Position numbers and translations under genes: made by a program. Of a stretch of DNA of 64,000 nt, positions 7,964-42,494 are shown in pieces; position 1 is the first letter of the stretch; each line of letters opens with the position of its first letter. The notes under the pieces are model-generated. The model searched no databases and had not been told where the DNA came from. It worked only from the letters and a program-made list of their open reading frames with translations. This DNA is from a virus (taxonomy: Duplodnaviria > Caudoviricetes): the IMG/VR virus record IMGVR_UViG_3300021425_003554; one strand, given 5' to 3'.

Positions 7964-9433
7964 ATGAGTTCATGTAAATTAGTAATTAAGGATGAAGTGA
8001 ATGTTAAATTTGAAAATTTATCATTAGAGTTTCGTAAAAAATTACACAATAAATTTAAATTTGAGATTCCATATGCCCGTCATCTACCAGCAGTGAAATT
8101 AGGAAGATGGGATGGAAAAGTTAGTTTTTTTGGTTTGGGAGGTACCAGTTATCTAGCATTAGTGCCTCAAATTTTACCAATACTTGAAGAACATAATGTT
8201 TATGTCGACCTTAACGACGAGCGTGAAAATCATAATTTTGAATTTAAACTGATAGACAAAAATTATTTAAGTGATATTACTTGGCCCACAAATCATCCGT
8301 GTGGAGGACAACCGATAGAATTACGAGACTATCAAGTCGAAATAATTAATAAATTTTTAGAAAATCCTCAGTGTATACAAGAAGTTGCCACCGGTGCAGG
8401 TAAAACAATTATCACTGCCGCACTATGTAAACTAGTCGAAGATTACGGAAGAACATTAACAATAGTTCCAAATAAAAGTTTAGTAACACAAACCGAGGAC
8501 GATTTTCTTGCTTGTAATTTAGATGTGGGAGTTTATTATGGAGATCGCAAAGAACTAGGAAGACAAAACACAATAGCCACTTGGCAATCTCTTAATGTGC
8601 TAGAAAAAAGAAGTAAAGACGATCACTCTACTGAATTTTTAGAAGCAATACAAAATGTCAATACAATTATAGTTGACGAGGTACATATGGCCAAGGCCGA
8701 TGTTTTAAAAAGAATGTTGACGGGACCATTTGCTCATTGTGGTATACGTTGGGGTCTCACAGGAACAGTGCCTAAAGCAGATTTTGAATTTTATGGATTA
8801 AAATGTTCAATTGGTGAAGTTGTAAATAAAATACCCGCTAAAGAATTACAAGATAAAGGAGTGTTAGCAAAATGTGATGTAAATATTTTACAAACACAAG
8901 ATCATCCTGCATTTAAAAATTATCAAGAAGAATTAAAATGGCTGACAACAGATGAAACACGAATGGAATGGATTGCTAAAACTGTTGACAGTATAGCAAG
9001 TTCAGGTAATACATTAATTTTAGTTGATAGAATATCTGCTGGAGAGATTTTAGAAAAAAAATTGAAAGGATCAACTTTTATTTCGGGAGCAACAAAAAAT
9101 ATAGATAGAAAGGAACACTATGATGAAGTATCTACTGCAACAAATAAAATTATTATTGCCACATATGGAGTTGCCAGTGTTGGCATTAATATCCCTCGTA
9201 TTTTTAATTTGGTTCTTATAGAACCTGGTAAATCGTTTGTCAGAGTAATACAATCGATAGGACGAGGAATAAGAAAAGCCGAAGATAAAGATTCAGTACA
9301 AATCTGGGATATAACCAGTTCGTGTAAATTTGCAAAAAGACATTTAACTGAAAGAAAAAAGTTTTACAAAGAGGCAAATTACCCTTATAATATAGATAAA
9401 ATAAATTATGAAAATCCTTACATTAGAAAATAG
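7964..9433 (+). CDS. uvsW: SF2 DNA helicase, UvsW-like
   Basis: LRDYQ Q-motif, ATGAGKT Walker A, DEVH, GLTGT, QSIGRGIR motif VI. Confidence 0.85.
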   Translation: MSSCKLVIKDEVNVKFENLSLEFRKKLHNKFKFEIPYARHLPAVKLGRWDGKVSFFGLGGTSYLALVPQILPILEEHNVYVDLNDERENHNFEFKLIDKNYLSDITWPTNHPCGGQPIELRDYQVEIINKFLENPQCIQEVATGAGKTIITAALCKLVEDYGRTLTIVPNKSLVTQTEDDFLACNLDVGVYYGDRKELGRQNTIATWQSLNVLEKRSKDDHSTEFLEAIQNVNTIIVDEVHMAKADVLKRMLTGPFAHCGIRWGLTGTVPKADFEFYGLKCSIGEVVNKIPAKELQDKGVLAKCDVNILQTQDHPAFKNYQEELKWLTTDETRMEWIAKTVDSIASSGNTLILVDRISAGEILEKKLKGSTFISGATKNIDRKEHYDEVSTATNKIIIATYGVASVGINIPRIFNLVLIEPGKSFVRVIQSIGRGIRKAEDKDSVQIWDITSSCKFAKRHLTERKKFYKEANYPYNIDKINYENPYIRK

Positions 9434-9911: not shown

Positions 9912-10357
9912 AAGAAAAAAATAGAAAATTTTTTGAGCTCAGGAATGGCATGAAAGCCGTTGATTTTCGTAATAAGGATTATTATGATCGTATCGATGAT
10001 AAAGAAAAAAGTTTATATTCTCCATATATGATCATGAGATATGCTAGTTCTGTATCCGGCGATAAATTTTATCAAGAACACTATGTTGAGATGATTAACG
10101 AGTGTGTTAACAAACATCTTTTTACGTTGTCCAGCAAACACAAAAAACTCTGCTGGATATTGACTGCCATGTGCGGTGGATTAAAACAACAGTTTCATCC
10201 ATGGGTCAAACCAATGAAGAAGACAGTTAATAAAAGTATGCAACAACTATTAGAAATATATCCTCATATGAAGGAAGACGATATTGAAACTCTTGACAAG
10301 ATATTAACCGATGCCGAGCTCGAAGAAATATTAGAATCATATGGAAAACAATCTTAA
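9905..10357 (+). CDS. Clamp-loader small subunit, T4 gp62-like
   Basis: YSPYMIMRYAS, VNKHLF, QFHPWVK pattern; replication-gene context. Confidence 0.6.
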   Translation: MVKEKNRKFFELRNGMKAVDFRNKDYYDRIDDKEKSLYSPYMIMRYASSVSGDKFYQEHYVEMINECVNKHLFTLSSKHKKLCWILTAMCGGLKQQFHPWVKPMKKTVNKSMQQLLEIYPHMKEDDIETLDKILTDAELEEILESYGKQS

Positions 10358-11027
10358 TACTTGTACATACTGTAATAAAACTTTTCAAAAAGAAAGAACA
10401 TTACAAGTTCATGTATGCGAACCCAAAAGAAGACATTTGCAAAAGGACGAAAAATGGGTTAAAAATGGATTCCTTGTTTTTCAAAAATTTTATGAAGTTC
10501 ATCAAAATACCGGAAAGCCAAAAACATATAAACAATTTTGTGACTCGTCCTATTATAATGCATTTGTAAAATTTGGTAGGTATCTTATGTACATCAATCC
10601 TTTATATCCAGACAAATATATAGATTTTATTGTAAGATCAAAAGTTAAATTAGATCATTGGGCAAGAGATGAACTATATGAATCTTACTTGATTGAAACT
10701 TTAAAAACAGAACCTTTAGAATCTGCTCTACAAAGATCTATTAAAACAATGATGGAATGGGCCGACGAACAAAAAGTACAATGGGCAGATTATTTTCGTT
10801 TAGTTAGTACCAATAGAGCAGTTTCACATATACAAAAAGGCAGTATATCTCCATGGTTGATCCTCGGATGTCCTGCGGGTAAAAAAATGTTGAAATCTTT
10901 TTCGGATGAACAATTACAAATGGTACAACGATTTATAAATCCCGAATTTTGGTCTAACAAATTTAGATCAAATCCGGCCGATGCAATTTTTGTAAACGAA
11001 ACAGCCAAGGAGGCAAGAATTGAGTAA
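10341..11027 (+). CDS. Zinc-finger-containing phage protein
   Basis: N-terminal CTYCNKTFQKERTLQVHVC C2H2-like finger. Confidence 0.7.
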   Translation: MENNLNTCTYCNKTFQKERTLQVHVCEPKRRHLQKDEKWVKNGFLVFQKFYEVHQNTGKPKTYKQFCDSSYYNAFVKFGRYLMYINPLYPDKYIDFIVRSKVKLDHWARDELYESYLIETLKTEPLESALQRSIKTMMEWADEQKVQWADYFRLVSTNRAVSHIQKGSISPWLILGCPAGKKMLKSFSDEQLQMVQRFINPEFWSNKFRSNPADAIFVNETAKEARIE

Positions 11028-11244
11028 AGTAGATATTGCTATTGATGATCATTTAGATATTGAAGCGGGCGACAGTGTTGTTGTAATAAAAGCCGACGGG
11101 TCGGTAGGCAAAGTAATTTTACCCGAAATGAATCAAGAAACTCAATACAGCAAAGGTTATAAAAAAATGTTACAAGTTTTAGACTTACTTAAACCCGGGA
11201 TCAAAGAAAAGTTTAACGATTATAATAAAGGAAAATTACACTAA
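11020..11244 (+). CDS. Hypothetical protein
   Basis: Coupled to both neighbours (TTG start, TAATG junction). Confidence 0.6.
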   Translation: MSKVDIAIDDHLDIEAGDSVVVIKADGSVGKVILPEMNQETQYSKGYKKMLQVLDLLKPGIKEKFNDYNKGKLH

Positions 11245-11843
11245 TGCCTGATGTAGATATAGATTTTTTTGATAGAGAAAATGCGTTGAAGTTATTCAAA
11301 CATATTCCGGCTTCTATAATAAAAAAAGAAAATGCCGAGAAACATAAAACAGGAATATATTTTCACGATGCTCCGGTTGACCCATTGAGAGGTTTTTGTA
11401 GTTTAGATTATAAAAGAGCAGAAGATAGAAAATATTTTAAGATTGATTGTTTAAATGTTAGTGTTTACGAAAAAGTTAAATCCGAAGAACACTTAATTGA
11501 ATTAATGTTGACAGAGCCCGACTGGAATATGTTATTAGATATAAATGTTGTAAATCAATTGTTCCATTTGAACGGACATTTTGACATTGTCTCAAAACTT
11601 GAGCCTAAAAATATTGAACAACTTGCGGCTGTATTGGCAATTATAAGACCAGCAAAAAGAGGATTGATGTATAAAGACTGGAACACGATATTAACCGAGG
11701 TCTGGACACGTCCAACAGACGGTAGTTATTTTTTTAAAAAATCTCATGCGATTGCTTATGCCCAGTTGATAGTTGTGCAGATGAATCTAATTTCAAATGA
11801 TAAATACATTTTTGATGCACCATCAAAAAAAGAAAAAACTTAA
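11244..11843 (+). CDS. Miniature DNA polymerase III alpha (DnaE/PolC palm)-like protein
   Basis: PDVDIDF, KIDCLNV, LAAVLAIIRP, FKKSHAIAY correspond to DnaE motifs; only 199 aa. Confidence 0.8.
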   Translation: MPDVDIDFFDRENALKLFKHIPASIIKKENAEKHKTGIYFHDAPVDPLRGFCSLDYKRAEDRKYFKIDCLNVSVYEKVKSEEHLIELMLTEPDWNMLLDINVVNQLFHLNGHFDIVSKLEPKNIEQLAAVLAIIRPAKRGLMYKDWNTILTEVWTRPTDGSYFFKKSHAIAYAQLIVVQMNLISNDKYIFDAPSKKEKT

Positions 11844-11944: not shown

Positions 11945-12328
11945 CTAACTAGGTCTTCTCATTAATTGAATTGTTCTTCTTTTAATTCGTTTTTTAGATA
12001 TCTCATCGAGCCTAAGCACAGGACCGTGTACAACTTCGATATCTTTAGTGGTAAGTGTTACCAGTGTAGATCTAAAGTATTGGAAATCTTTTTTTAAAAA
12101 TATGTTAATAGGTATTTTTCTATTTGATTCCCACCACCATATTTCACCATATTTCAAAAAATCCATTTTATCTTCTGGAGACATGATTCTACCATAATCA
12201 TAAAAACTTGTCACTTGATTATCTTGGTTTTGCACGATCCCCACAAACTCCATATCTCCCTTTCGTATAAGAGATAAAAATGGAAATTTCTTTCTTAATG
12301 TTTCAAAAATTTCATTCATATGTTTCAA
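11945..12328 (-). CDS. Hypothetical phage protein
   Basis: 127-aa ORF divergent from 12351 ORF. Confidence 0.7.
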   Translation of the reverse strand: MKHMNEIFETLRKKFPFLSLIRKGDMEFVGIVQNQDNQVTSFYDYGRIMSPEDKMDFLKYGEIWWWESNRKIPINIFLKKDFQYFRSTLVTLTTKDIEVVHGPVLRLDEISKKRIKRRTIQLMRRPS

Positions 12329-13176: not shown

Positions 13177-14193
13177 ATGAATTTAATTCAGTCTACTATT
13201 CTGAATTCTCTTCCTAGCGGAAAGAAAAAAACACCCTCTGGTTGGTTATCTTTTAATGCTCCGTGTTGTATACACAACGGCACAGGTGCTGATAAAAGAA
13301 AACGTGGAGGCATCATGACTTCTGCCGACGGTACTTTAAGTTATCATTGTTTTAATTGTGGTTATAAAACTTCGTATGTTGTTGGAAGAAAACTCAATGC
13401 GAAAACAAGACAACTCATGAGCTGGTTAGGAATTAGTGAAGAAACTATAAGAAAATTATCAATAGAGGCCATGCGTTATGAAGAATCCGGCAATACATTT
13501 GAAACAAAAAAAAATATAAATTTTGCTATCAAGACGTTGCCAAAAAATTCACACACACTAGATTATTGGTTGGAAAAATATATTGCAAAAGATCTAACAG
13601 AAGTTCAATATAAAAAAATTGATCAATTATTAAACTACTTAAAAAAAAGAGGTATTTCTCCCGATTGGTATAAATTTTATTATAGTCCGGATCAAACAGG
13701 AGATTTCCATAGAAGAGTAATTGTGCCTTTTTATTGGAAAAATAATATAGTAGGACACACAGGAAGAATTTTTGATACAAGAAACAAGGAAGTTAAATAT
13801 TGGACAGAAACACAACCGGGTTATGTGTTTAACATAGATGTCCAGGATTGGAAAAGAAAGTTTGTGATTGTGACCGAAGGTCCTTTTGATGCTATCACTG
13901 TTTCGGGTGTGAGCATTTTAGGTTCAGAGGTCAATGATACGCAGAAAGATATTATAAACAGTTTGAATAGACAGGTAATTGTAGTGCCGGATCAAGACAA
14001 AGCCGGAGAAAAACTAATAGACCAAGCAATAGAGTTTGGGTGGTCTGTATCTTTTCCAGAATGGCAAAAAGGAGTTGATGATGTGGCCGAATCTGTGTTA
14101 CAATATGGAAGATTATATACAATACAGTCGATACTAAAAGGAACAGAAACTAATAAACTTAAGATCGATTTAAAAAGAAAAATAAATGGCTGA
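13177..14193 (+). CDS. DNA primase (gp61/DnaG-like)
   Basis: Zn-binding CCIH..HCFNC; TOPRIM EGPFDA and PDQD. Confidence 0.9.
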   Translation: MNLIQSTILNSLPSGKKKTPSGWLSFNAPCCIHNGTGADKRKRGGIMTSADGTLSYHCFNCGYKTSYVVGRKLNAKTRQLMSWLGISEETIRKLSIEAMRYEESGNTFETKKNINFAIKTLPKNSHTLDYWLEKYIAKDLTEVQYKKIDQLLNYLKKRGISPDWYKFYYSPDQTGDFHRRVIVPFYWKNNIVGHTGRIFDTRNKEVKYWTETQPGYVFNIDVQDWKRKFVIVTEGPFDAITVSGVSILGSEVNDTQKDIINSLNRQVIVVPDQDKAGEKLIDQAIEFGWSVSFPEWQKGVDDVAESVLQYGRLYTIQSILKGTETNKLKIDLKRKING

Positions 14194-15616
14194 ATATACA
14201 TTTGACGTACAAAAACTTTATTTAGAAATGCTAATGGCAGATGCTGAATCATTTGCTAGGGCACAAAATATTTTTGAACCTGCAAATTTTGACAGGAAAC
14301 TACAACCAATTGCAAAATTTGTTAAGGATTATGTCGATGAATATAAAGTCATGCCCGACGTTGAACAAATTAATGCTGTACATGATACAAAATTAAAAAC
14401 TGCAAAGGATCTAGATCCGGCACATTTTAATTGGCTACTAGATGAATTTGAAACATTTTCTAGGCACAAATCAATGGAGAGAGCAATATTGGAGTCTGCA
14501 GATTTGCTCGAAAAAGGAGATTATAATCCAGTAGAAGACAAGATCAAAGCGGCTGTTAGTATAAGTCTTACTAAAGATCTAGGAACAAACTATTTTGAAA
14601 ACCCTAAAAAAAGATTAGAGGATCTTAAGAGTGCCAACGGACAGGTTAGCACAGGATGGATAAACGTAGATAAAAAATTGTTTGGTGGATTTAATAAAGG
14701 AGAATTAAACATTTTTGCTGGAGGATCGGGTGCAGGTAAATCTATTTTCCTACAGAATCTTGCTGTGAATTGGGCAACTGCCGGGTTGAATACTTGCTAT
14801 CTTTCATTTGAATTAAGTGAATCATTGGTGGCAATGAGACTCGATGCCATGATGTCTGGCATAGCAACAAGAAGAATATTTCCAGAAATTGACAACGTGG
14901 AAATGAAAGTAAAAATGATTGAGAAAAAATCCGGTGCTTTACAGATAAAATATCTACCAAGTGGCAGTAACGTAAATGACATTAAAGCGTATCTCAAAGA
15001 ACTTGAATTGAAAAATAAAAAGAAATTTGATTGTATATTGATTGATTATTTGGATCTGATGATGCCTAAAAGTAAACGTATCAGTCCTGCAGATCTTTTT
15101 ATAAAAGACAAATATGTATCGGAAGAACTTAGAAATTTCGCAACTGAATCTCAGATGATCATGGTAACGGCATCACAATTGAATAGAGCATCGGTTGAAG
15201 AAATCGAGTTTGACCATTCACATATTTCGGGCGGGTTGAGTAAGATTCAAACAGCAGATAACGTGATTGGTATCTTTACAAGTCGTGCAATGAAAGAGCG
15301 TGGACGTTATCAAATACAGTTTATGAAAACAAGAAGTTCAAGCGGTGTGGGACAAAAAGTGGATTTAGAATTTGATTTAGATACTCTTAGAATAAAAGAT
15401 TTACTCGAAGAGGAAGGCGATCATTCACAATTTAAAAAACCAGCAACAGCAATGTACGATTCTTTAAAACAAAAAAGTAAAATTATTAATGATAGTAACA
15501 AAAATATTACTATCGATCCTACAAAAGGAAACGATATAGGTAAAGTTAAAGCCACAGTTGAAGGGGCCAAATTGAGACAATTATTAAATGATTTACACTC
15601 AGATGAAGAGCAATAA
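14186..15616 (+). CDS. Replicative SF4 helicase (gp41/DnaB-like)
   Basis: GGSGAGKS Walker A, SFELSE, IDYLDLM, TASQLNR, MKTR. Confidence 0.9.
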   Translation: MAEYTFDVQKLYLEMLMADAESFARAQNIFEPANFDRKLQPIAKFVKDYVDEYKVMPDVEQINAVHDTKLKTAKDLDPAHFNWLLDEFETFSRHKSMERAILESADLLEKGDYNPVEDKIKAAVSISLTKDLGTNYFENPKKRLEDLKSANGQVSTGWINVDKKLFGGFNKGELNIFAGGSGAGKSIFLQNLAVNWATAGLNTCYLSFELSESLVAMRLDAMMSGIATRRIFPEIDNVEMKVKMIEKKSGALQIKYLPSGSNVNDIKAYLKELELKNKKKFDCILIDYLDLMMPKSKRISPADLFIKDKYVSEELRNFATESQMIMVTASQLNRASVEEIEFDHSHISGGLSKIQTADNVIGIFTSRAMKERGRYQIQFMKTRSSSGVGQKVDLEFDLDTLRIKDLLEEEGDHSQFKKPATAMYDSLKQKSKIINDSNKNITIDPTKGNDIGKVKATVEGAKLRQLLNDLHSDEEQ

Positions 15617-32021: not shown

Positions 32022-33245
32022 CTAACCCTCGTACCTTTCTATGAGATATCTCATACTTTTATCAACCGTGCTGTTGTCTTCGTTTCCACTATAACCTATC
32101 CAGTTGTTGTCATAATAAACTGGTCTATCGATATCTATGTGTTGTATGGGATTTTTGACTCCCACTTTTGGTTTTTCAACAAAATAAATTTCATTGTGAT
32201 CAAACTCATACACATATCTTTTTACATCTATTTTGTGTTGTGACCGGTCATCGTCAGGAATTAATCTTTTTAAATTGGTGTAGGACCACTGCTGGAACTT
32301 GTCTGTGTTGAAGAATGTGTTCTTGGCAAACTGTTGTTGATGCTCATATGATATTGGTTTCTTGTACAAGGGCATTCCGTCTTTGTCGCCGGTAGATCTC
32401 ATATAAAAGAATGGACGTTGGCAACTGAATTCCCACTTGAAGTTGAAATAGGTCCACCACCAGAAATCTGCAACAGTTGATACATAATCTTGCTGATCAA
32501 TCTCGCCTATGCTTTGACTTATTTTGTCATAGTACCATTGATTGAAATCTACTGCTAGATCGTCTGTCAAATAGTTTTTAATTTTTATTTTGTGTATGCT
32601 ATGCGGTTGTTTGTGCAGACCTTTGAGAAAATAATCTTTATACATGGGCATACTGGGACCAAACAAGCAGTCACCCGGATCACCGTGTAGTAAAATGTAT
32701 TTGTCAAGAAAGTATGTGTTCAAACTTATATCAAGATAAAAAGATTGTTTGATCTTTCCATTGATGTGTTTTTTCCAATATTCAACATTCTCATATATCG
32801 AGGAAGTTGTCATGATGACCTCTATCATGTCGTGTTCGTTGTTGGGTATGTTTTTCAACAACGATGTCAGCACTGCTGTGGAATCAATTCCACCACTCCA
32901 CATCACTGCCAGTTTCTTGTTGGAGTTCTTGGCCTCGTTGTACAACTCCGTGGCCCTCTCGTCCATTAGATCTGACAGCGTGTCGTTGATGAATTTCAAT
33001 TCGGGCATGGCATACAGTGGATTGCTGGGTGCGTTCCATGGCGTGTTGAACGTGCCTCTGCGAGCTCGCAGATCTTGTACTCCGATCAATATTTTTGGAG
33101 TTCGTCTCCAAACTTCGGCAAACTTGTTTGCATAGGTTCCGTTATTTTTCAAATCGGTTTTTGCACTGGGATAGGGTATCCAGTGGTTGTCGACCATCCG
33201 TGATGAACGTATTCCTTGTATGTGTGCCTGTGGATGATGTTTCAT
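32022..33245 (-). CDS. Asparagine-synthetase-like PP-loop amide ligase, paralog C
   Basis: Same motifs; TTAAATA 7 nt upstream of ATG. Confidence 0.7.
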   Translation of the reverse strand: MKHHPQAHIQGIRSSRMVDNHWIPYPSAKTDLKNNGTYANKFAEVWRRTPKILIGVQDLRARRGTFNTPWNAPSNPLYAMPELKFINDTLSDLMDERATELYNEAKNSNKKLAVMWSGGIDSTAVLTSLLKNIPNNEHDMIEVIMTTSSIYENVEYWKKHINGKIKQSFYLDISLNTYFLDKYILLHGDPGDCLFGPSMPMYKDYFLKGLHKQPHSIHKIKIKNYLTDDLAVDFNQWYYDKISQSIGEIDQQDYVSTVADFWWWTYFNFKWEFSCQRPFFYMRSTGDKDGMPLYKKPISYEHQQQFAKNTFFNTDKFQQWSYTNLKRLIPDDDRSQHKIDVKRYVYEFDHNEIYFVEKPKVGVKNPIQHIDIDRPVYYDNNWIGYSGNEDNSTVDKSMRYLIERYEG

Positions 33246-33275: not shown

Positions 33276-34019
33276 TTAAAAAATAGTGAGTATATCTGGT
33301 AAATGAAATATTACCAAAATGTAATCTTTGTTTTTTCCGGATTTGAAAAAAGTGTTTGCCAAAAATTTGTCGGGTGTCACTTCCAGCATGGTACCAGGTA
33401 CATGATCATATACTTTTTCCACGGTTAAATTGTCTAATCGATTATACGGATAACCGTTGTTCTGAATCACTGTGTGCCGTAGGTCATATCTAAAACTGTT
33501 GCTGTTTTCTGTTGGCGATATTGGTTGAGAACATCGTTCTAACATTTCCGTGTGATTGGAAGCCGTGTCCGAAAACACCAGTGTCTTGTCCGATGACGGG
33601 TCGGTGTTTATTGGCATTAAAAACATTTTAGTGACCTGCGTCGTATCATGACTAGAATGATGGTATAGGCCGTGAGGTGCATGGCATTCTTGTAGGAACA
33701 TAAAACGAGGCTGGGCAACTTTTAGTTCACTTTTGAAATGCTGTATCTTGTTGATCACTGCCTGTCTTATGCCGTTGCTTGGATCCACGTTGACAAATCT
33801 GGAAAGTGGTTGTAATCGTTCTACTGGTTTGAAAGGAAAGACCGATTCGGGCCTAGAACCGTTGCCGGGATCTACAAAGTTTTTGAAGTCATACGGTTTG
33901 CGTGCCGATGCTTTCAACTGTTTGATCTCGTGTCGTAGCCATTTCAACTGATTGCTGTTCCACACGTCCTTGTGTACATTTGCTACATTCCTGAAAGTGT
34001 CGTTTATATTGTTGCTCAT
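33276..34019 (-). CDS. Degenerate Fe/2OG-oxygenase-like protein
   Basis: Aligns by eye with 35811 ORF but lacks HxD and distal His. Confidence 0.5.
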   Translation of the reverse strand: MSNNINDTFRNVANVHKDVWNSNQLKWLRHEIKQLKASARKPYDFKNFVDPGNGSRPESVFPFKPVERLQPLSRFVNVDPSNGIRQAVINKIQHFKSELKVAQPRFMFLQECHAPHGLYHHSSHDTTQVTKMFLMPINTDPSSDKTLVFSDTASNHTEMLERCSQPISPTENSNSFRYDLRHTVIQNNGYPYNRLDNLTVEKVYDHVPGTMLEVTPDKFLANTFFKSGKNKDYILVIFHLPDILTIF

Positions 34020-34075
34020 ATATCTGTATTTAACTAATTTTCGCCGACTATTCTATGATCATTAAATAAAACATC

Positions 34076-34849
34076 ATGCAAAACATCAAAGAAGCCAGAC
34101 AACTGATACGTGCCGGGGAATACACTGGATATACCAGTGGATGGTGTAGAGACTATGTTCAGGGTAACTTGTGCATAGTGGACAAGTCGGATGCCGAGGA
34201 TTTCGCAGAGTTCTGCAGATTGAATCCAAAACCGTGTCCGGTGTTGGCACAGGGAGATCCCGGAGATCCAGTGTTGAAGTCATTGGGGGATATCAACATA
34301 TGTACCGATCTTCCCAGATATCGCGTGTGGCGTAAAGGTAAATTAGTGGACATAGTTTCTGACATTTCGTCATACTGGACCAACGACATGGTGGCCTTTG
34401 TTCTCGGATGCAGTTTCAGTTTTGATCAACTGTTCTTGGATGCAGGACTGCCGTTGCCTCATCTCAATGATGGTTCGATGGTGGCCATGTACCGCACCTG
34501 GAACGAATGCGAGTCCGTGGGCAAATTTCGAGGACGACTGGTGGTGAGCATGAGACAGTTCCGTGCGGACCATGCCATAGAATCCATAGCGATATCGTCA
34601 AGGTATCCACTGGCACATGGAACTCCTGTACACATCGGAGATCCCACACAGATAGGAATACGAGACCTAACCAAACCCGATTACGGAGATGTGCCCAAAG
34701 TTGTGCAGGGACATCTGCCTGTGTTCTGGGCCTGTGGTGTGACGCCACAGAGCATATTGACCACATCGCCGGATGTGGAGATAGCGATCACACACCAGCC
34801 TGGTTGTATGCTGTTGACCGATATACCTTATTCAAAAATAGCAGTGTGA
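34076..34849 (+). CDS. D-glutamate cyclase family (DUF1445/UPF0317)
   Basis: FCRLNPKPCPVL, TDLPRYRV, GCSFSF, HGTPVHIG, FWACGVTPQ, THQPGCML. Confidence 0.92.
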   Translation: MQNIKEARQLIRAGEYTGYTSGWCRDYVQGNLCIVDKSDAEDFAEFCRLNPKPCPVLAQGDPGDPVLKSLGDINICTDLPRYRVWRKGKLVDIVSDISSYWTNDMVAFVLGCSFSFDQLFLDAGLPLPHLNDGSMVAMYRTWNECESVGKFRGRLVVSMRQFRADHAIESIAISSRYPLAHGTPVHIGDPTQIGIRDLTKPDYGDVPKVVQGHLPVFWACGVTPQSILTTSPDVEIAITHQPGCMLLTDIPYSKIAV

Positions 34850-34857
34850 TAGATCTA

Positions 34858-35493
34858 TCACTGATCGATCATCAGATCATGTATTTGTTGGAAGTCATGA
34901 TCTTTTCTCATTTTGTTTTCTAATCGCAAACTCATGATTATCCTCTCATGTGTGGTAGAGGTGTTCCCCCAGTAATGCCACTCGCCGGTGTTTATCAACA
35001 TTGCCTGGTCGTTCTGTAGCACAGTGGTACAGGCCCGAGGTGTCTGTAGTTGACCTTGCATGTCCCACCATTCATCGTCCACGTTGTGTACATCGCTATA
35101 GATTGTCCGTGGATCATTCTTCAACACTTCATCATCCACCCAGTAGGTGTTGCAACATTGGTCCAGCACCTTTATGGGGAAATTCAATCCCACCAGGTCG
35201 TCGGCACCTGGGCCTTCGGTCCTGTCTCTGTGCAGTGAGGAATAATCTCCGGGCTGTGATATCAGAACACTTCCGATTCTTTGCCACGATATGCTGTCCG
35301 GGCCGGGCAGGCAATGATATATCTCTGACAGATCTATGCTTTTGCGAGTGTGCTTCCGGGCTGTCGGGAATGTGTGTGGTTGACAAACCCTGTCGTCATT
35401 GACGTGTGCCTGTAGCCAAGATATTATTTTGGGCAATCCGGGCCAGGTGATCGTGGTGTAATAGGGAGAGTGATCTGAGATGACTTTCATCAT
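34858..35493 (-). CDS. Fe/2OG-oxygenase-like protein
   Basis: SLHRD, LINTGEWH, ERIIMSLR; start refined to ATG behind GATAAATA. Confidence 0.65.
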   Translation of the reverse strand: MMKVISDHSPYYTTITWPGLPKIISWLQAHVNDDRVCQPHTFPTARKHTRKSIDLSEIYHCLPGPDSISWQRIGSVLISQPGDYSSLHRDRTEGPGADDLVGLNFPIKVLDQCCNTYWVDDEVLKNDPRTIYSDVHNVDDEWWDMQGQLQTPRACTTVLQNDQAMLINTGEWHYWGNTSTTHERIIMSLRLENKMRKDHDFQQIHDLMIDQ

Positions 35494-35562
35494 GTGCTGA
35501 TATTTATCGGCATGGATCAAACAGCATATTATGGTGACACACGCGATATTAAGTATTTTTGT

Positions 35563-35817
35563 ATGTACACCATAGAGCAGAGGAAGACCATATACCTCAT
35601 GACACGCAAACCGGTGTGGTATCACACTCACTGCCTCACACCGGGACCGGGCAAACCCCTGTGGTACGATCCCACGTGGGTCATAGGCGAGTGCGAACTG
35701 TGCCGCATGGACATAGCCGGCCAGGACTGGTGGAACGGTTGCAGTTATCGACAATCACAGAGAAAGGTGTACGACGGCCTGATCAATCAACGCCACTGGT
35801 TTGGTGTTGATCAGTAG
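35563..35817 (+). CDS. Small Cys/Trp-rich hypothetical protein
   Basis: MYTIEQRK..CELC..; fills the gap between minus-strand genes. Confidence 0.45.
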   Translation: MYTIEQRKTIYLMTRKPVWYHTHCLTPGPGKPLWYDPTWVIGECELCRMDIAGQDWWNGCSYRQSQRKVYDGLINQRHWFGVDQ

Positions 35818-36500
35818 GACTCGTTGCGGAACTGTCGGGCGAAGGGTCCTTGTTTGATGGTGGTGTGTATCAGCAGATAGTCCTTGTGTTGGCGTTCCGG
35901 TGAGTGCCTCTGCCAATCAGATCCAGCGTGTATGGCGTGTGCATCAAAACACACAGCATCTCCCAACCTGTACTCGAACACACCGGCCACTGTCATGTGA
36001 TCCACCACTGATTCACAGTGTTCCAGTTGATAGCGTAGTCGGTGATCACCCCTGTGGGGCCATGTGCTCGCACTGTGTATTATGCGTTGTTGGGCCTGGT
36101 GTGCATCGATCTGTTCCTGTCGTAGGTCAGTGATGGTGCTGTGATCAAACACCACTGTGCGATCCACGCCGGGGGTGACGTGTCGCAACGGCAACAGTAT
36201 GCTGTGTCCACGACCCTGATTGGGATGGTTGTCGGTGTGCAGGCTATTTGACCGGTGCTGTTCCACGAAGGCCATGAATGTGAGCTTCTCGTCGGGCAGG
36301 TCCTCCATGACACGCATCGCGAACTGCTGTGTGATGGGATAGAGGTGCTGTTGGGCATTGATCCTGTATCTCCGGGCCATTGCAGTGCGTCCCATGTCGG
36401 GCAGGGGTTCACGCTCCAGGCACTGATCCATTTCCGCACAGATCTGCTCCAGCTCTGCTGTGCTGACCACATCGTGCAGTACTCGGAAATCCACTGTCAT
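35811..36500 (-). CDS. Fe/2OG-oxygenase-like protein
   Basis: SLHTD HxD, distal HAGS; TATAAATA 5 nt upstream of ATG at 36500. Confidence 0.65.
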   Translation of the reverse strand: MTVDFRVLHDVVSTAELEQICAEMDQCLEREPLPDMGRTAMARRYRINAQQHLYPITQQFAMRVMEDLPDEKLTFMAFVEQHRSNSLHTDNHPNQGRGHSILLPLRHVTPGVDRTVVFDHSTITDLRQEQIDAHQAQQRIIHSASTWPHRGDHRLRYQLEHCESVVDHMTVAGVFEYRLGDAVCFDAHAIHAGSDWQRHSPERQHKDYLLIHTTIKQGPFARQFRNESY

Positions 36501-36524
36501 GCTGATATTTATAGGGTGATTGTT

Positions 36525-36570
36525 TGACCCGGCTCCGCTGTGGACGAAACCGGGCGGATCCCACAGTCCC
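36525..36570 (-). ncRNA. Pseudoknotted trailer RNA 3' of the atypical tRNA
   Basis: CTGTGG/CCACAG, TCCG/CGGA, CCCGG/CCGGG pairings in A-C-B-A'-C'-B' order. Confidence 0.5.
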
Positions 36571-36572
36571 TT

Positions 36573-36669
36573 TGGTACGGTCAACAGGACTCGAACCTGT
36601 AGTGCCCTCTCGAGCTCCAGCGTCAAAACACCGGATGTGTCTGGATACTCCTGATTTCACCATGACCGC
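36573..36669 (-). tRNA. Atypical class II (Leu-like) tRNA-like RNA with non-canonical D and anticodon arms
   Basis: 7-bp acceptor GCGGTCA/TGACCGT, A73, CCA, T-arm ACAGG-TTCGAGT-CCTGT, variable arm GCTC-GAGA-GGGC; TGTTATAAT just upstream. Confidence 0.75.
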
Positions 36670-36765
36670 ACACGCATTATAACATGGCCCCGATGGTAAT
36701 GCTAGACCTTTTTTTTCTGCTGTGCAAATTTTTTTGATCTGAGGAACACCGGGTGTAGGCAGTTT

Positions 36766-36936
36766 TTACAACAGCAATCGCCTGTCCACTTCGCTCGCGG
36801 GCACATCACACACCTGTACCAGATCATATCGCTGTTCCAGTGAGTCATGCAGTATGTCAGCGGATTCCCGATCCAACTGCACATAGCAACGATGTAGTAT
36901 ACGGCCCTTTTGACACATAACGTAGTAGTACTTCAT
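36766..36936 (-). CDS. Small hypothetical protein
   Basis: 56-aa ORF MKYYYVMCQKG.. Confidence 0.4.
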   Translation of the reverse strand: MKYYYVMCQKGRILHRCYVQLDRESADILHDSLEQRYDLVQVCDVPASEVDRRLLL

Positions 36937-37170
36937 GTAGGTTATTATACGTTCAAACGACACAGTTGTCAAACCTGGGTATGCAGGGTAAAAAAATCCG
37001 CTGTGCATTTTTTTTAATATGGGGGTATTTTAGCACCACCCCGGTCCTTTTTAGGCCATGGGGCTTACAAATTGCCAAATTTATTACCAAAATAAAAATG
37101 CTATGCGACCGGGGCCAGATCTTTTTCTTTCTGGGTCCAGCCGGCCGACCCTGATTATTAAATATAACAT

Positions 37171-37842
37171 ATGGACAGGATGCAGAGATTGGTGGCCTTT
37201 GGATGTAGCAACACCCTGGGCGAGGGACTGGAGGGCTTCCAGTGGCGACAGCCTCACCCACGGGCATGGCCGGCCGTGTTGGGTCAGCAACTGGACCGAC
37301 CGGTGTTGAACCTGGGCCACTCGGGCGCCAGCAACAGGTACATAATGGATCGTGTGTTGAACACACCGCTCACACGCACCGACACAGTGGTGATCATGTG
37401 GACCAGTTTCGCCAGGCACTGTTGGTTCGATGCGGGGGGACAGGTGCGGCGTGCATTGCCACACGACATAGGAAGGCCACACGAATGGCCACACGACGGA
37501 CCCGAGATCGATGGTCGGCTCAGCGAGCTCTATTACCAACACATATGGTCGGCGCACGATGCCTGGCACGCCAGCATGACACAGATCAACTGGACACAGG
37601 CCTACCTACAGCGGCTGGGCGTGAGATGCCTGCACCTGCTGTGGTGGGAGGGCGATCATCACCGGGACAGGCCCTCATGGAACCAGACCCTGATACACAA
37701 CCTGCCGTTCAGCCAGGAGGACCGTGCACCGGACGGCCACCATCCGGGCGTGAACTCACACCACACACAGGCCCTACGCATCCGGGAACTGCTGTTCCGC
37801 ACACACCCCAACCACCCGGCCACCCTGCGATCCCACAGTTGA
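37171..37842 (+). CDS. SGNH-hydrolase-like phage protein (paralog of 22160 ORF)
   Basis: GCSNTLG, NLGHSGASN, DGHHPG; TTAAATA 6 nt before ATG. Confidence 0.7.
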   Translation: MDRMQRLVAFGCSNTLGEGLEGFQWRQPHPRAWPAVLGQQLDRPVLNLGHSGASNRYIMDRVLNTPLTRTDTVVIMWTSFARHCWFDAGGQVRRALPHDIGRPHEWPHDGPEIDGRLSELYYQHIWSAHDAWHASMTQINWTQAYLQRLGVRCLHLLWWEGDHHRDRPSWNQTLIHNLPFSQEDRAPDGHHPGVNSHHTQALRIRELLFRTHPNHPATLRSHS

Positions 37843-38107
37843 TCTCTCCTTAGATGTGCCTCAATTACCAATAGATCGGGTTGATCTCTCCGTGTGCCCA
37901 CTCGGCACAACGAAGCTCACTGTGCGAACACTTGGTCAAAATGGTCCAAAATGGTACGCCAGGCCCGCCGCCAGCCCTGTGGTTATTGCATAGATTTTAC
38001 CAGATCAACTCGGTAATTGGATTGGCTATGTGGTTATCGCATGGCACTCGGACCGGTCGGGATCGCCCTTTACCACCACCAATCCGGCTGGGGATAAGTA
38101 CTCATAT

Positions 38108-38311
38108 ATGTTCAAGATGATAGTGGTGATATGTGCCCTGGGCAATCCCTGTGTGCAATTCGTGGAGAACCAACACCGGGTGTATGCCACACAAAACCAG
38201 TGCCTGGATCGTGCGGAGATCAAGTACCAACAGCTCACAGCAACACTGATCCAAGCGGGTTATCGACTGGCCGATTCCGGCTACTACTGTGTGAGGGACG
38301 ACAGCATATGA
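38108..38311 (+). CDS. Small Cys-containing, possibly secreted protein
   Basis: MFKMIVVICALGNPC..; GATAAGTA 7 nt before ATG. Confidence 0.55.
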   Translation: MFKMIVVICALGNPCVQFVENQHRVYATQNQCLDRAEIKYQQLTATLIQAGYRLADSGYYCVRDDSI

Positions 38312-38636
38312 TCTGGGATCTAGTGATAATAACGCTGTCAATGGTGGCCTATGCCTACATGGCCTGGTCACTGCATAAGTGAACCAACACACCCCCCACC
38401 GACCCCAAGGCATATTGTTCGCAGATCAGTACCGCTCCCTACCTTTGCACACGGTGGCCAATCGGTGGCCCTCACCCCGGCCAGATCAACCCCAACACGC
38501 CTTTAGGCGTTTGCGACCCAGATTTGCGTATCGAAGGTCACAATTCTTTTGGTAAGATCCTAAGGATGGGGCACTATGCTAAAATACGGCAACCGCTTTT
38601 AGCCACCATACGACACGATCCCGCATACATACTCGT

Positions 38637-38765
38637 ATGCCGTTTAGATACTATTGGGAATGGTTCCTGTTCTGGGTCACTGGCTATCCCTGTTGGGACT
38701 GTGTGAGGATACGCCTGATCATCCTGGTCCTGCTCGTCATCGTTGCCCATTTTTTGCTAGCCTAA
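38637..38765 (+). CDS. Small membrane protein with CxxC (not in ORF track)
   Basis: MPFRYYWEWFLFWVTGYPCWDCVRIRLIILVLLVIVAHFLLA. Confidence 0.5.
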   Translation: MPFRYYWEWFLFWVTGYPCWDCVRIRLIILVLLVIVAHFLLA

Positions 38766-39243
38766 ACAGCCTCCACCATAAACGACCCACGGTGCTCTAC
38801 CATTCCAATTGTGCTTCACACACTGAACTCGCAGGCGATCTAGCCAAGAGGAGTCAGGGTAGATCACAGTTGGGATTATCAGCAGGCACTCTAGGTTAGG
38901 ATAGGGCTCGGTGTCAAAAATTGCTGTCGCGATATGCCTGTAAGGCATATAATGGAAACAAGCATTTGGTAAAATTTTTGCGGCGCACCGCTTCGCGGAC
39001 AGGGCCTATGGCTTCCGGTTGGTAATACCATGTCTGTGTGCTCTGGGGGTGGCTAGGTTAGGGATTGGATGGACTATGGATTCACATACTGGCCACACTC
39101 AAAACCGTGATGGTCGTGAGGTAAGTGATCAGTAGGGTGTATATGGCTATCTTGAGCTTCAGCATCTGTTCCTTGTTGTTGGGATTGTTGAACCTAGACT
39201 ATATATCTGTGGTTGGTTTTTTTTGGGTGGATATGCGAGCCTA

Positions 39244-40134
39244 TTACTGTTGACCCGCATACTTGATTATGAACTTGAGAACTTCCTGTGTGAATACATC
39301 CTTGACTCCAGTGAAACCATGTGCGTCTGCCTGTACTCCGCAACCTCTGGGATCCTTGCCCGGTCCCTTCCAAGTTTCCTCACCGCCTGTTATCTTGACC
39401 AAATATGTGGGTCCGGCGTTCATGCCCTTGTCGGTGTATTTCTTGTATCTGTTCTTGGCCGCCCTGTAGGATGTGCTGGGACACTTGTCCTTCTCGTGGT
39501 GTATGATCAGGGCCGGTATGTTGAATTGCTGGACCTCCAGTCCTCGTTTGCCCGGATACGGAGCCGATTGATTGCCCCCGGACCATATGGCACCCGACAC
39601 CAGGGTTTGGTTCTCTTCCTGCATCAACAGATAGCCCGAGACTCCCTGGGCACCCGCCGAATGACCCATGATGAACACGGGTTTTCCAAATTGCTCGTGA
39701 GCCCACAGCACCACTGACTTGACTCTGGCCACATAGTCCTCGGACCATCTGCCCGGACCACCCCAATCACCGTTGGGCATCTTCTTGTCGTTCCTGATCT
39801 CATAGCCCACGTCAACACCCACGGTGGTAATGATGTTGGAAAGGTGTTCTATGGGACCAAAGTTCAGTGAGTTGACACGACCCCTGCCACCCTGCAACCA
39901 AACGATCACGGCCGGCGAGTCCTCAACGGCACTCACCACCATTTTGGTGAAGAGACCGGTCTGTCCCTTGTCTTTACAGTCCTCGGACACACACTCCACG
40001 AATCTGATGGAATCACCCGCCAAACCATGATGTGCCTTGGCCGGCAACGAAACCACGCCCAATAGCATCAACACCGCTATGGCACCACCCACGGTGCCCA
40101 CGGTCAATTTGACAAAATCAATGATGTTCCTCAT
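39244..40134 (-). CDS. Exported alpha/beta-hydrolase-like protein
   Basis: N-terminal hydrophobic segment, GHSAG nucleophile elbow, IIHHEKD, distal HGF. Confidence 0.7.
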   Translation of the reverse strand: MRNIIDFVKLTVGTVGGAIAVLMLLGVVSLPAKAHHGLAGDSIRFVECVSEDCKDKGQTGLFTKMVVSAVEDSPAVIVWLQGGRGRVNSLNFGPIEHLSNIITTVGVDVGYEIRNDKKMPNGDWGGPGRWSEDYVARVKSVVLWAHEQFGKPVFIMGHSAGAQGVSGYLLMQEENQTLVSGAIWSGGNQSAPYPGKRGLEVQQFNIPALIIHHEKDKCPSTSYRAAKNRYKKYTDKGMNAGPTYLVKITGGEETWKGPGKDPRGCGVQADAHGFTGVKDVFTQEVLKFIIKYAGQQ

Positions 40135-41263: not shown

Positions 41264-41442
41264 CAAACCACTTTCAGTTGAACATCACTTAGGTACAACT
41301 CCTCTTTCTGTGCCATCACTTTTGGATAACACTTCTTACAGAATTGAACCGGTATGATGCCCAACATTCCCACCAATGTGTCGTTGTCCTTGTGTTGGAA
41401 GGACACGGAACACACGGTGCATCTATGTTTCTTATTTCTCAT
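41263..41442 (-). CDS. Zinc-ribbon protein
   Basis: CTVC..CKKC; start refined to coupled ATG. Confidence 0.6.
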   Translation of the reverse strand: MRNKKHRCTVCSVSFQHKDNDTLVGMLGIIPVQFCKKCYPKVMAQKEELYLSDVQLKVV

Positions 41443-42494
41443 CAAGACCCCGCTCTCATACAGGTCTGCTCGGCCAACTGCTGGTACCTGTCCGGAGCCA
41501 TCTTCCAAAGATCTGCTATCTTCAATACCATCCTCAAAGATATCTCTCTCAGTCTTGTACGATTATCAAATATGAAATTGACCAATTGATCCTCGACCTC
41601 TTGTGACATCGAGTATTTGGATAATAGACCTTCACGACATATCTGTTTGATACGAAGCATTCTATCTCTCATGGAATCAATTGTGAGATCCAGGTAGTGA
41701 CATCTTGATTGTAATGCCTCTAGATGGTCTCTCAACTTCTTGGATTTGACATTATCAAATTTGACGTTAGTGATGAATATGATACCAGCATTGAAGTCAA
41801 ATGAGTTTGGAACTCCCTCGGCGTGTAGGAATCTCGATTCCGTGCCCCATTGTAGAGTTCTCTTCCTACCTGTGTCCAGTGCGGCCTTCAATAGGTTAAG
41901 TGCTAGGTCATCGTAAAGGATAACGTCACAGTCATCAAAACATACCACATGACCTGGATCCGCGTGTTCGTATAACTTCTTATACAGACCTATGGCACTC
42001 ATGGCACCTTTCACAACTTCAAACTTTCTTCGGTTTCCTGCTATGTCATCAAATGTGGAATACTTCATCAAAGAAGTTTCAACACCGTAAGACTTACCAA
42101 TGCCCGGAGGTCCCGAAACGATCATACCTTTGATCTGTTTCTGTGCTATGGCCTCGGTCATCTCATTCAAGATGGCAAAACGATCTCCAATTCTTTTGAT
42201 CGCTTGTTCATCACTTTCTGATTGAGGCTTTGGATCTGTCTGAGCCGAATCATTCAGTTCTTCTTTGAACTTCACATACTCGCCCTCCGGCACTATCTTG
42301 ATAGATTGGATGTTGGGTACATTTACTCTGACCTTGTCCAGACCTTCGTAGCCGTTCAGTTCCGTTGTGGTCACTGTGACGAAGCCACCCTCTCGGTTGC
42401 TGTGTTTTTGATAGTCCTTGAACAACGGAAACACTCTACCTGATTGGTCTATGTTTCTGTAGGACCCTTCTTCTATTTTAATGTATTTCTTCAA
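41442..42494 (-). CDS. AAA+ P-loop ATPase
   Basis: GPPGIGKS Walker A, VCFDDCD Walker B, FITN sensor 1, ALQSR Arg finger. Confidence 0.85.
   Translation of the reverse strand: MKKYIKIEEGSYRNIDQSGRVFPLFKDYQKHSNREGGFVTVTTTELNGYEGLDKVRVNVPNIQSIKIVPEGEYVKFKEELNDSAQTDPKPQSESDEQAIKRIGDRFAILNEMTEAIAQKQIKGMIVSGPPGIGKSYGVETSLMKYSTFDDIAGNRRKFEVVKGAMSAIGLYKKLYEHADPGHVVCFDDCDVILYDDLALNLLKAALDTGRKRTLQWGTESRFLHAEGVPNSFDFNAGIIFITNVKFDNVKSKKLRDHLEALQSRCHYLDLTIDSMRDRMLRIKQICREGLLSKYSMSQEVEDQLVNFIFDNRTRLREISLRMVLKIADLWKMAPDRYQQLAEQTCMRAGS

Follow-up and report, generated by a model that had tools for sequence, protein, structure and literature searches.

The gene at positions 11244-11843 (plus strand) of the window, the whole 64,000-nucleotide stretch of phage DNA that was analysed (IMG/VR record IMGVR_UViG_3300021425_003554), encodes the C-terminal half of an already published split DNA polymerase. 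Its 199-residue product is very probably a subunit of a reduced, intein-free nucleotidyl transferase of the C family (DnaE-like) that consists of two subunits and is typical of the group 2.2 jumbo phages, namely those resembling Rak2, PA5oct and Atu_ph07. The open reading frame (ORF) is a real, conserved and functional gene and an ortholog of the published family. It is not new, because the two-piece enzyme, a minimal Pol III alpha accompanied by a family B polymerase, was described for these phages by Iyer, Anantharaman, Krishnan, Burroughs and Aravind (Iyer et al. 2021, Viruses 13:63, PMC7824862). The window itself adds no new kind of element. The additions made here are natural single-chain fusions of the two halves, a strictly conserved split point and invariant flanking genes, which make the published hypothesis directly testable.

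The C-terminal half and its relation to DnaE

The features of the window that are needed below are as follows.

7964-9433, plus strand: superfamily 2 helicase of the UvsW type, which anchors a conserved replication/recombination module on the upstream side
10341-11027, plus strand: 228-residue zinc-finger-like protein (PHROG 11058)
11020-11244, plus strand: 74-residue ORF with a stop codon that overlaps the start codon of the C-half
11244-11843, plus strand: C-half of the split minimal Pol III alpha, 199 residues (assigned by PHROG 11778, motifs and AF2 model)
11945-12328, minus strand: 127-residue protein (PHROG 11637)
13177-14193, plus strand: DnaG/Toprim-type primase
14186-15616, plus strand: DnaB-like replicative helicase
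41442-42494, minus strand: AAA+ ATPase with weak similarity to clamp loaders (E = 2.7e-6; PHROG 1250, E = 4e-81)

Translation of the C-half ORF gives 199 codons without an internal stop. Its ATG shares bases with the TAA stop codon of the 74-residue ORF (TAATG, positions 11242-11246), and the two therefore form a translationally coupled pair, as the original prediction, made from the DNA letters, had stated. The four motifs on which that prediction was based, PDVDIDF, KIDCLNV, IRP and FKKSHA, are all found in the protein. The chain carries D5 and D7, K66 and D68, and R135-P136, K138, K165 and H168, the last five of which are a remnant of the fingers. In a set of 93 homologs, most of them 32-52% identical to the 199-residue protein, K66, D68 and P136 are invariant, and D3, D5, D7, R135, K138, K165 and H168 are at least 90% conserved. 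Loss of the aspartate triad was looked for in the same set and is not seen, D68 being present throughout and D5 and D7 nearly so.

The relationship to the bacterial replicative polymerases is not apparent from a single sequence. Searches of Pfam, NCBIfam and the PDB with the single protein gave nothing significant, and the Pfam scan returned no model at an E-value of 0.01 or better. PHROG 11778 ('DNA polymerase', 197 positions) matches residues 3-186 of the 199 with E = 3e-65. DnaE was reached by the family profile and by the structure model only. The family profile, compared with the PDB, retrieved DnaE chains exclusively (Taq, 3e0d, E = 5e-6), and its match to the Taq enzyme consists of three colinear blocks.

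Taq 460-521: DxD motif
Taq 601-709: K-x-D to RP motif
Taq 809-824: FNKSHA motif

The AF2 model of the 199-residue chain has a pLDDT of 95.2. All of the top 17 rows of a Foldseek search with this model are C-family polymerases, as are the top 16 rows of a VIA-align comparison, where the next fold follows at Z 2.9. The best VIA-align superpositions are on Taq Pol III alpha, where 187 residues align within positions 461-838 at Z 9.6 with an rmsd of 3.6, and on positions 400-781 of the E. coli enzyme (Z 8.9), and the structural alignments to DnaE and PolC span 185-187 of the 199 residues. Since both the profile and the structure search lead to C-family polymerases, the earlier reading of the motifs was right.

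The protein thus has the polymerase-beta-like palm, the three catalytic aspartates and the motif order of DnaE. Because the alignment covers only Taq 461-838, in separated blocks with two large gaps, the PHP domain, most of the thumb and the domains that follow the fingers are absent, also in agreement with the original prediction. None of the PHP domain, full thumb, clamp-binding/HhH domain and OB fold is found in the ORF. The fingers have lost about 100 residues (Taq 710-808), so that substrate handling may differ from that of DnaE, and everything C-terminal of the fingers is missing as well. The domain names applied to the DnaE and phage regions are those of the DnaE structure papers.

Such a small protein, compared with cellular DnaE, could be debris, left over from a pseudogene or produced by misassembly of a full-length dnaE, and its partner half was indeed termed 'truncated' in earlier genome papers. 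This possibility is negligible. A large protein collection, searched in the range of 109-349 residues, contains 3556 homologs, the best 120 of which are 188-204 residues long; several of the latter also occur in the Tara Oceans data. Near-identical copies (98-99%, plus one of 100%) are present on seven independent IMG/VR contigs, and the gene order around the C-half, described below, is fixed in about 80 loci. Furthermore, the median pairwise dN/dS is 0.068 for 81 copies of the gene (534 pairs with dS of 0.1-1.5). The C-half gene is therefore real and undamaged, and purifying selection on it is strong, with no sign of the relaxed selection or the misassembly that were looked for, and the earlier opinion that it does not look like debris is borne out.

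The same data bear on a second possibility, that the protein is a non-catalytic relic retained as a scaffold, as a decoy or for regulation, for instance by binding the replisome of the host or of the phage. The loss of the PHP, thumb, clamp-binding and OB domains would agree with such a function, and so would the family B replicase that the phage group already has. However, D5, D7, D68 and K66, residues that serve catalysis only, are invariant or nearly so in the 93 homologs, and a dN/dS of 0.068 also speaks against a relic, which makes this explanation very unlikely.

A tblastn search with the C-half matched 96 phage records, nearly all of them genomes of 280-490 kb. The identity is about 55% to Atu_ph07 and Phosso and 48% to the PA5oct-type Pseudomonas phages (overall range 48-56%), and 36-37% to the Rak2/121Q-type enterobacterial phages; XacN1 was also matched. 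A few of the GenBank phage records label the protein DnaE-like or DNA polymerase III alpha. The family is abundant, with thousands of database homologs, many of them from marine metagenomes, and no smaller version of the bacterial replicative polymerase core is known.

The N-terminal partner and the natural fusions

The ORF begins right at the DxDxD strand, and the segment with the GS nucleotide-binding motif, which precedes this strand in every DnaE, is absent from the chain because the ORF starts after it. This part of the DnaE palm binds the triphosphate of the incoming nucleotide. In relatives of the phage, an N-terminal half (N-half) of about 170 residues, ending in EFL[RK], stops exactly where the 199-residue ORF starts. 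A search of the Phosso and PAC2 genomes with Pfam PF07733 found one such gene in each, above the curated cut-off, encoding 177 and 169 residues, respectively. The N-half and C-half genes are separated by 224 kb in Phosso and 44 kb in PAC2. The C-termini of the two N-halves have the form ...VWGVGRGSSVASYVLFLIG.H.V....Y.LD..EFL[NK]-stop, which includes GVGRGSSVASY. In GenBank they are named 'DnaE-like DNA polymerase III alpha' and 'DNA-pol3-alpha domain-containing protein'.

The point of the break is fixed, because nearly all N-halves stop within one residue after EF[LIF] (all but three of 35 diverse aligned sequences); the GVGRGSS motif is present in all 35. An intein at the break was considered and rejected: the N-halves end at the break, the C-half starts M-P-D-V-D, and neither terminus carries an intein fragment.

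The two halves occur together. The tblastn counts of N-half and C-half are equal for phages of Escherichia (34/34), Salmonella (8/8), Erwinia (8/8), Xanthomonas (4/4), Yersinia (4/4) and Agrobacterium (2/2). Three uncultivated genomes that were chosen through their N-half, G007 (372 kb, terminal repeats, 100% complete), G008 (345 kb) and G009 (270 kb), each contain both halves at least 140 kb apart. Together with Phosso and PAC2, both halves are present in five of the five complete or near-complete genomes checked. Of the complete isolates, the two that were examined for a family B polymerase both have one.

The halves are also found joined. A 375-residue protein from the representative search, P0177, matches the 199-residue ORF with its residues 190-371; its N-terminal part is the N-half, and a short linker restores the DnaE-like spacing from EF[IL]K to DxDxD. 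Two further fused forms of 376 residues, P0392 and P0393, are 78-81% identical to P0177, and the three proteins come from three separate assemblies. P0177 was folded with an alignment input in which both halves align correctly, giving an AF2 model with a pLDDT of 90.6 and a pTM of 0.89. The model superimposes on C-family polymerases over 323-339 of its 375 residues with Z scores of 15-21. DnaE1 of M. tuberculosis scores Z 21.4 over 326 residues, the ternary complex of Taq Pol III alpha Z 20.4 over 323 residues with an rmsd of 4.0, and PolC Z 17.9. Outside the C family, the top rows are small transferases of the polymerase-beta fold with Z of 4.6 or less. The superposition of the P0177 model on DnaE supports the notion that the N-half and the C-half together form one DnaE-like core. 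The fused form gave no match in IMG/VR, and no mention of single-chain fusions was seen in the available part of the text of Iyer et al. (PMC7824862). Fusions of the P0177 type could be handy single-chain constructs for biochemistry.

The 199-residue protein could, on the other hand, act by itself as a minimal polymerase or nucleotidyl transferase, without a second chain, as the leading version of the original prediction had it when it suggested a new activity. The three carboxylates and the lysine of the K-x-D motif all reside in one chain, this chain alone is predicted to fold with high confidence (pLDDT 95.2), and no N-half was found in the window. However, the GS-motif segment that precedes DxDxD in every C-family polymerase is missing from the ORF, is encoded by a separate and equally conserved gene in five of five complete or near-complete relatives, and is fused to the C-half, as part of the N-half, in three natural proteins. 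A self-sufficient enzyme is hence a highly improbable reading, and the suggestion of a new activity is not supported either; the two-piece enzyme had already been published in 2021. The other candidate that had been put forward, one piece of a split polymerase, is the one that agrees with the separate N-half gene of the relatives, the co-occurrence of the halves and the natural fusions.

The alignments of the P0177 model begin at residues 10-18 of DnaE and at residues 344-346 of PolC, positions that are known from the first and last aligned residues alone. We take these positions to be about where the PHP domain starts. The first ~75 residues of the N-half (P0177 1-75) may, according to the model, be a vestige of the PHP domain.

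In PAC2 (Pseudomonas phage vB_Pa-PAC2, record positions 202949-206726, L089/L091), the family B matches lie in two frames, of 825 and 379 residues, and the family B replicase of this phage may itself be interrupted or split. An annotated AAA ATPase is located 0.7-2.6 kb from the N-half gene in PAC2 and Phosso.

The gene neighbourhood in the window

The C-half gene occupies a fixed place in a conserved locus. The order is UvsW, o167, o150, the 228-residue zinc-finger-like protein, the 74-residue ORF (not in every locus), the C-half, the 127-residue protein on the other strand, o271, the primase and DnaB, and it is the same in this phage, Phosso, the PA5oct-type phages and uncultivated complete genomes. 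The 228-residue protein is immediately upstream of the C-half in 80 of 80 related loci, the 127-residue ORF on the opposite strand is immediately downstream in 77 of 77, and the 74-residue ORF is upstream in 78 of 84. UvsW, the DnaG-type primase and DnaB are a replication/recombination gene set of the T4 type, and their order around the C-half is kept in 50-80 related loci. The 228-residue protein is a candidate accessory factor, and both it and the 127-residue neighbour may be accessory subunits. A protein atlas search with the 228-residue protein gave no functional lead.

The gene had been placed among clamp loader, primase and helicase genes. The primase and helicases are there (UvsW, the DnaG-type primase and DnaB), whereas no clamp loader adjoins the C-half gene. 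The only protein with weak clamp-loader similarity is the AAA+ ATPase at 41442-42494, about 30 kb from the C-half and with no N-half nearby.

The N-half was sought in the 64-kb window in three ways: by tblastn with the N-halves of PAC2 and Phosso, by a search for the GRGS and ERFL motifs, and with a profile, unfiltered, against all frames of at least 50 residues. None of these found it, the best E-value being 0.067, and the window certainly does not contain the N-half. Related marine contigs of up to 122 kb also contain no N-half, as is expected if its gene is far away. Contigs with an N-half from the IMG/VR samples that have a 99% identical C-half were not present among the 80 loci listed. 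As regards a family B polymerase, the longest ORF in the window encodes 518 residues and has no PHROG match. Judging from its relatives, the phage probably carries both an N-half and a family B polymerase elsewhere in its own genome.

Over its first 34 kb, the window has a G+C content of about 30-36%, and phage genes lie there, including those for a head maturation protease, radical SAM enzymes, the UvsW-type helicase, the DnaG-type primase and DnaB. The G+C content climbs to 49-54% at positions 34000-40000; long ORFs are scarce at 34-56 kb and the GC skew is strongly negative at 40-54 kb. The IMG/VR record closest to the window, a 37.5-kb fragment (G001), stops near window position 33,100.

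Comparison with other polymerases and possible role

The protein has the same length, the same DxDxD start and the same C-terminal Mg2+- and template-binding subdomain as the family of Iyer et al. (PMC7824862), it is 48-56% identical to the copies from Atu_ph07, Phosso and the PA5oct-type phages, and it has the same neighbourhood of UvsW, zinc-finger protein, C-half, primase and DnaB. The present copy differs in coming from an uncultured marine lineage. The N-half had been noticed before as a 'truncated' Pol III alpha in genome papers (CBB, Atu_ph07). The searched literature yielded no biochemical or genetic study of either half.

Like bacterial DnaE and PolC (PDB 2hnh, 2hpi, 3e0d, 5lew and 3f2b), the phage enzyme has the three aspartates and the lysine, a polymerase-beta-like palm and the same order of motifs. 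Unlike them, it has no PHP domain, almost no thumb, a deletion of about 100 residues in the fingers, no clamp-binding/HhH domain, no OB fold and no tau-binding tail, and its palm is divided between two genes.

Division of a C-family polymerase between two distant genes is also found in cyanobacteria, where DnaE-n and DnaE-c are encoded by two genes and are joined by intein trans-splicing. In contrast, the phage split has no intein and interrupts the palm, directly ahead of the catalytic aspartates, rather than the fingers, and the phage product would have to be a non-covalent heterodimer. The split family B polymerase of the chimalliviruses (bioRxiv 2026, PMC13648687) is likewise a phage polymerase made from separately encoded pieces, but it belongs to an unrelated polymerase family, and Pol III/DnaE is unmentioned in that report.

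In the most probable arrangement, the C-half supplies the palm strands with D5, D7 and D68, the neighbouring K66 and the shortened fingers (IRP and FKKSHA), and the distantly encoded partner of about 170 residues, ending GVGRGSS...EFL[RK], would supply the GS-motif part of the palm. The two chains would bind each other without a covalent link, forming a core of about 375 residues that is presumably catalytically active. Because this core would have no PHP domain, almost no thumb, no clamp-binding/HhH domain and no OB fold, it is expected to be a distributive, non-proofreading polymerase. It may work beside the family B replicase, for example by extending primers, filling gaps or carrying out synthesis linked to recombination, and such an auxiliary role fits the fixed place of the gene, which has the UvsW helicase on one side and the primase and DnaB genes on the other. 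Iyer et al. (PMC7824862) suggested that the enzyme cooperates with the family B polymerase in the synthesis of one strand or in repair, and put the minimal Pol III alpha forward as a model of what the ancestral Pol III was like.

A bolder and rather improbable proposal is that the halves are kept apart on distant genes to restrict formation of the enzyme to one set stage of infection, and that the domain-poor heterodimer does what a family B replicase cannot, with the 228-residue and 127-residue neighbours perhaps providing its missing thumb or DNA-binding parts. Hand-off primer extension, synthesis at recombination intermediates and untemplated or modified-nucleotide addition would be examples of such activities. 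If this were true, the enzyme would be a regulated, assembly-gated polymerase and not a simple helper.

A related marine jumbo phage, represented by a 51-kb IMG/VR contig (3300017697_000021), contains a minimal C-half (L088:1408-2076, plus strand). After DnaB and an endonuclease III gene, the same contig also has an unsplit, apparently PHP-less DnaE-like gene (...TRGSAGSS...ARFLNPNRDDLPDVDIDF...; PF07733, E = 1.7e-41), the ORF of which passes the end of the contig. One relative, therefore, has both split and unsplit C-family palms.
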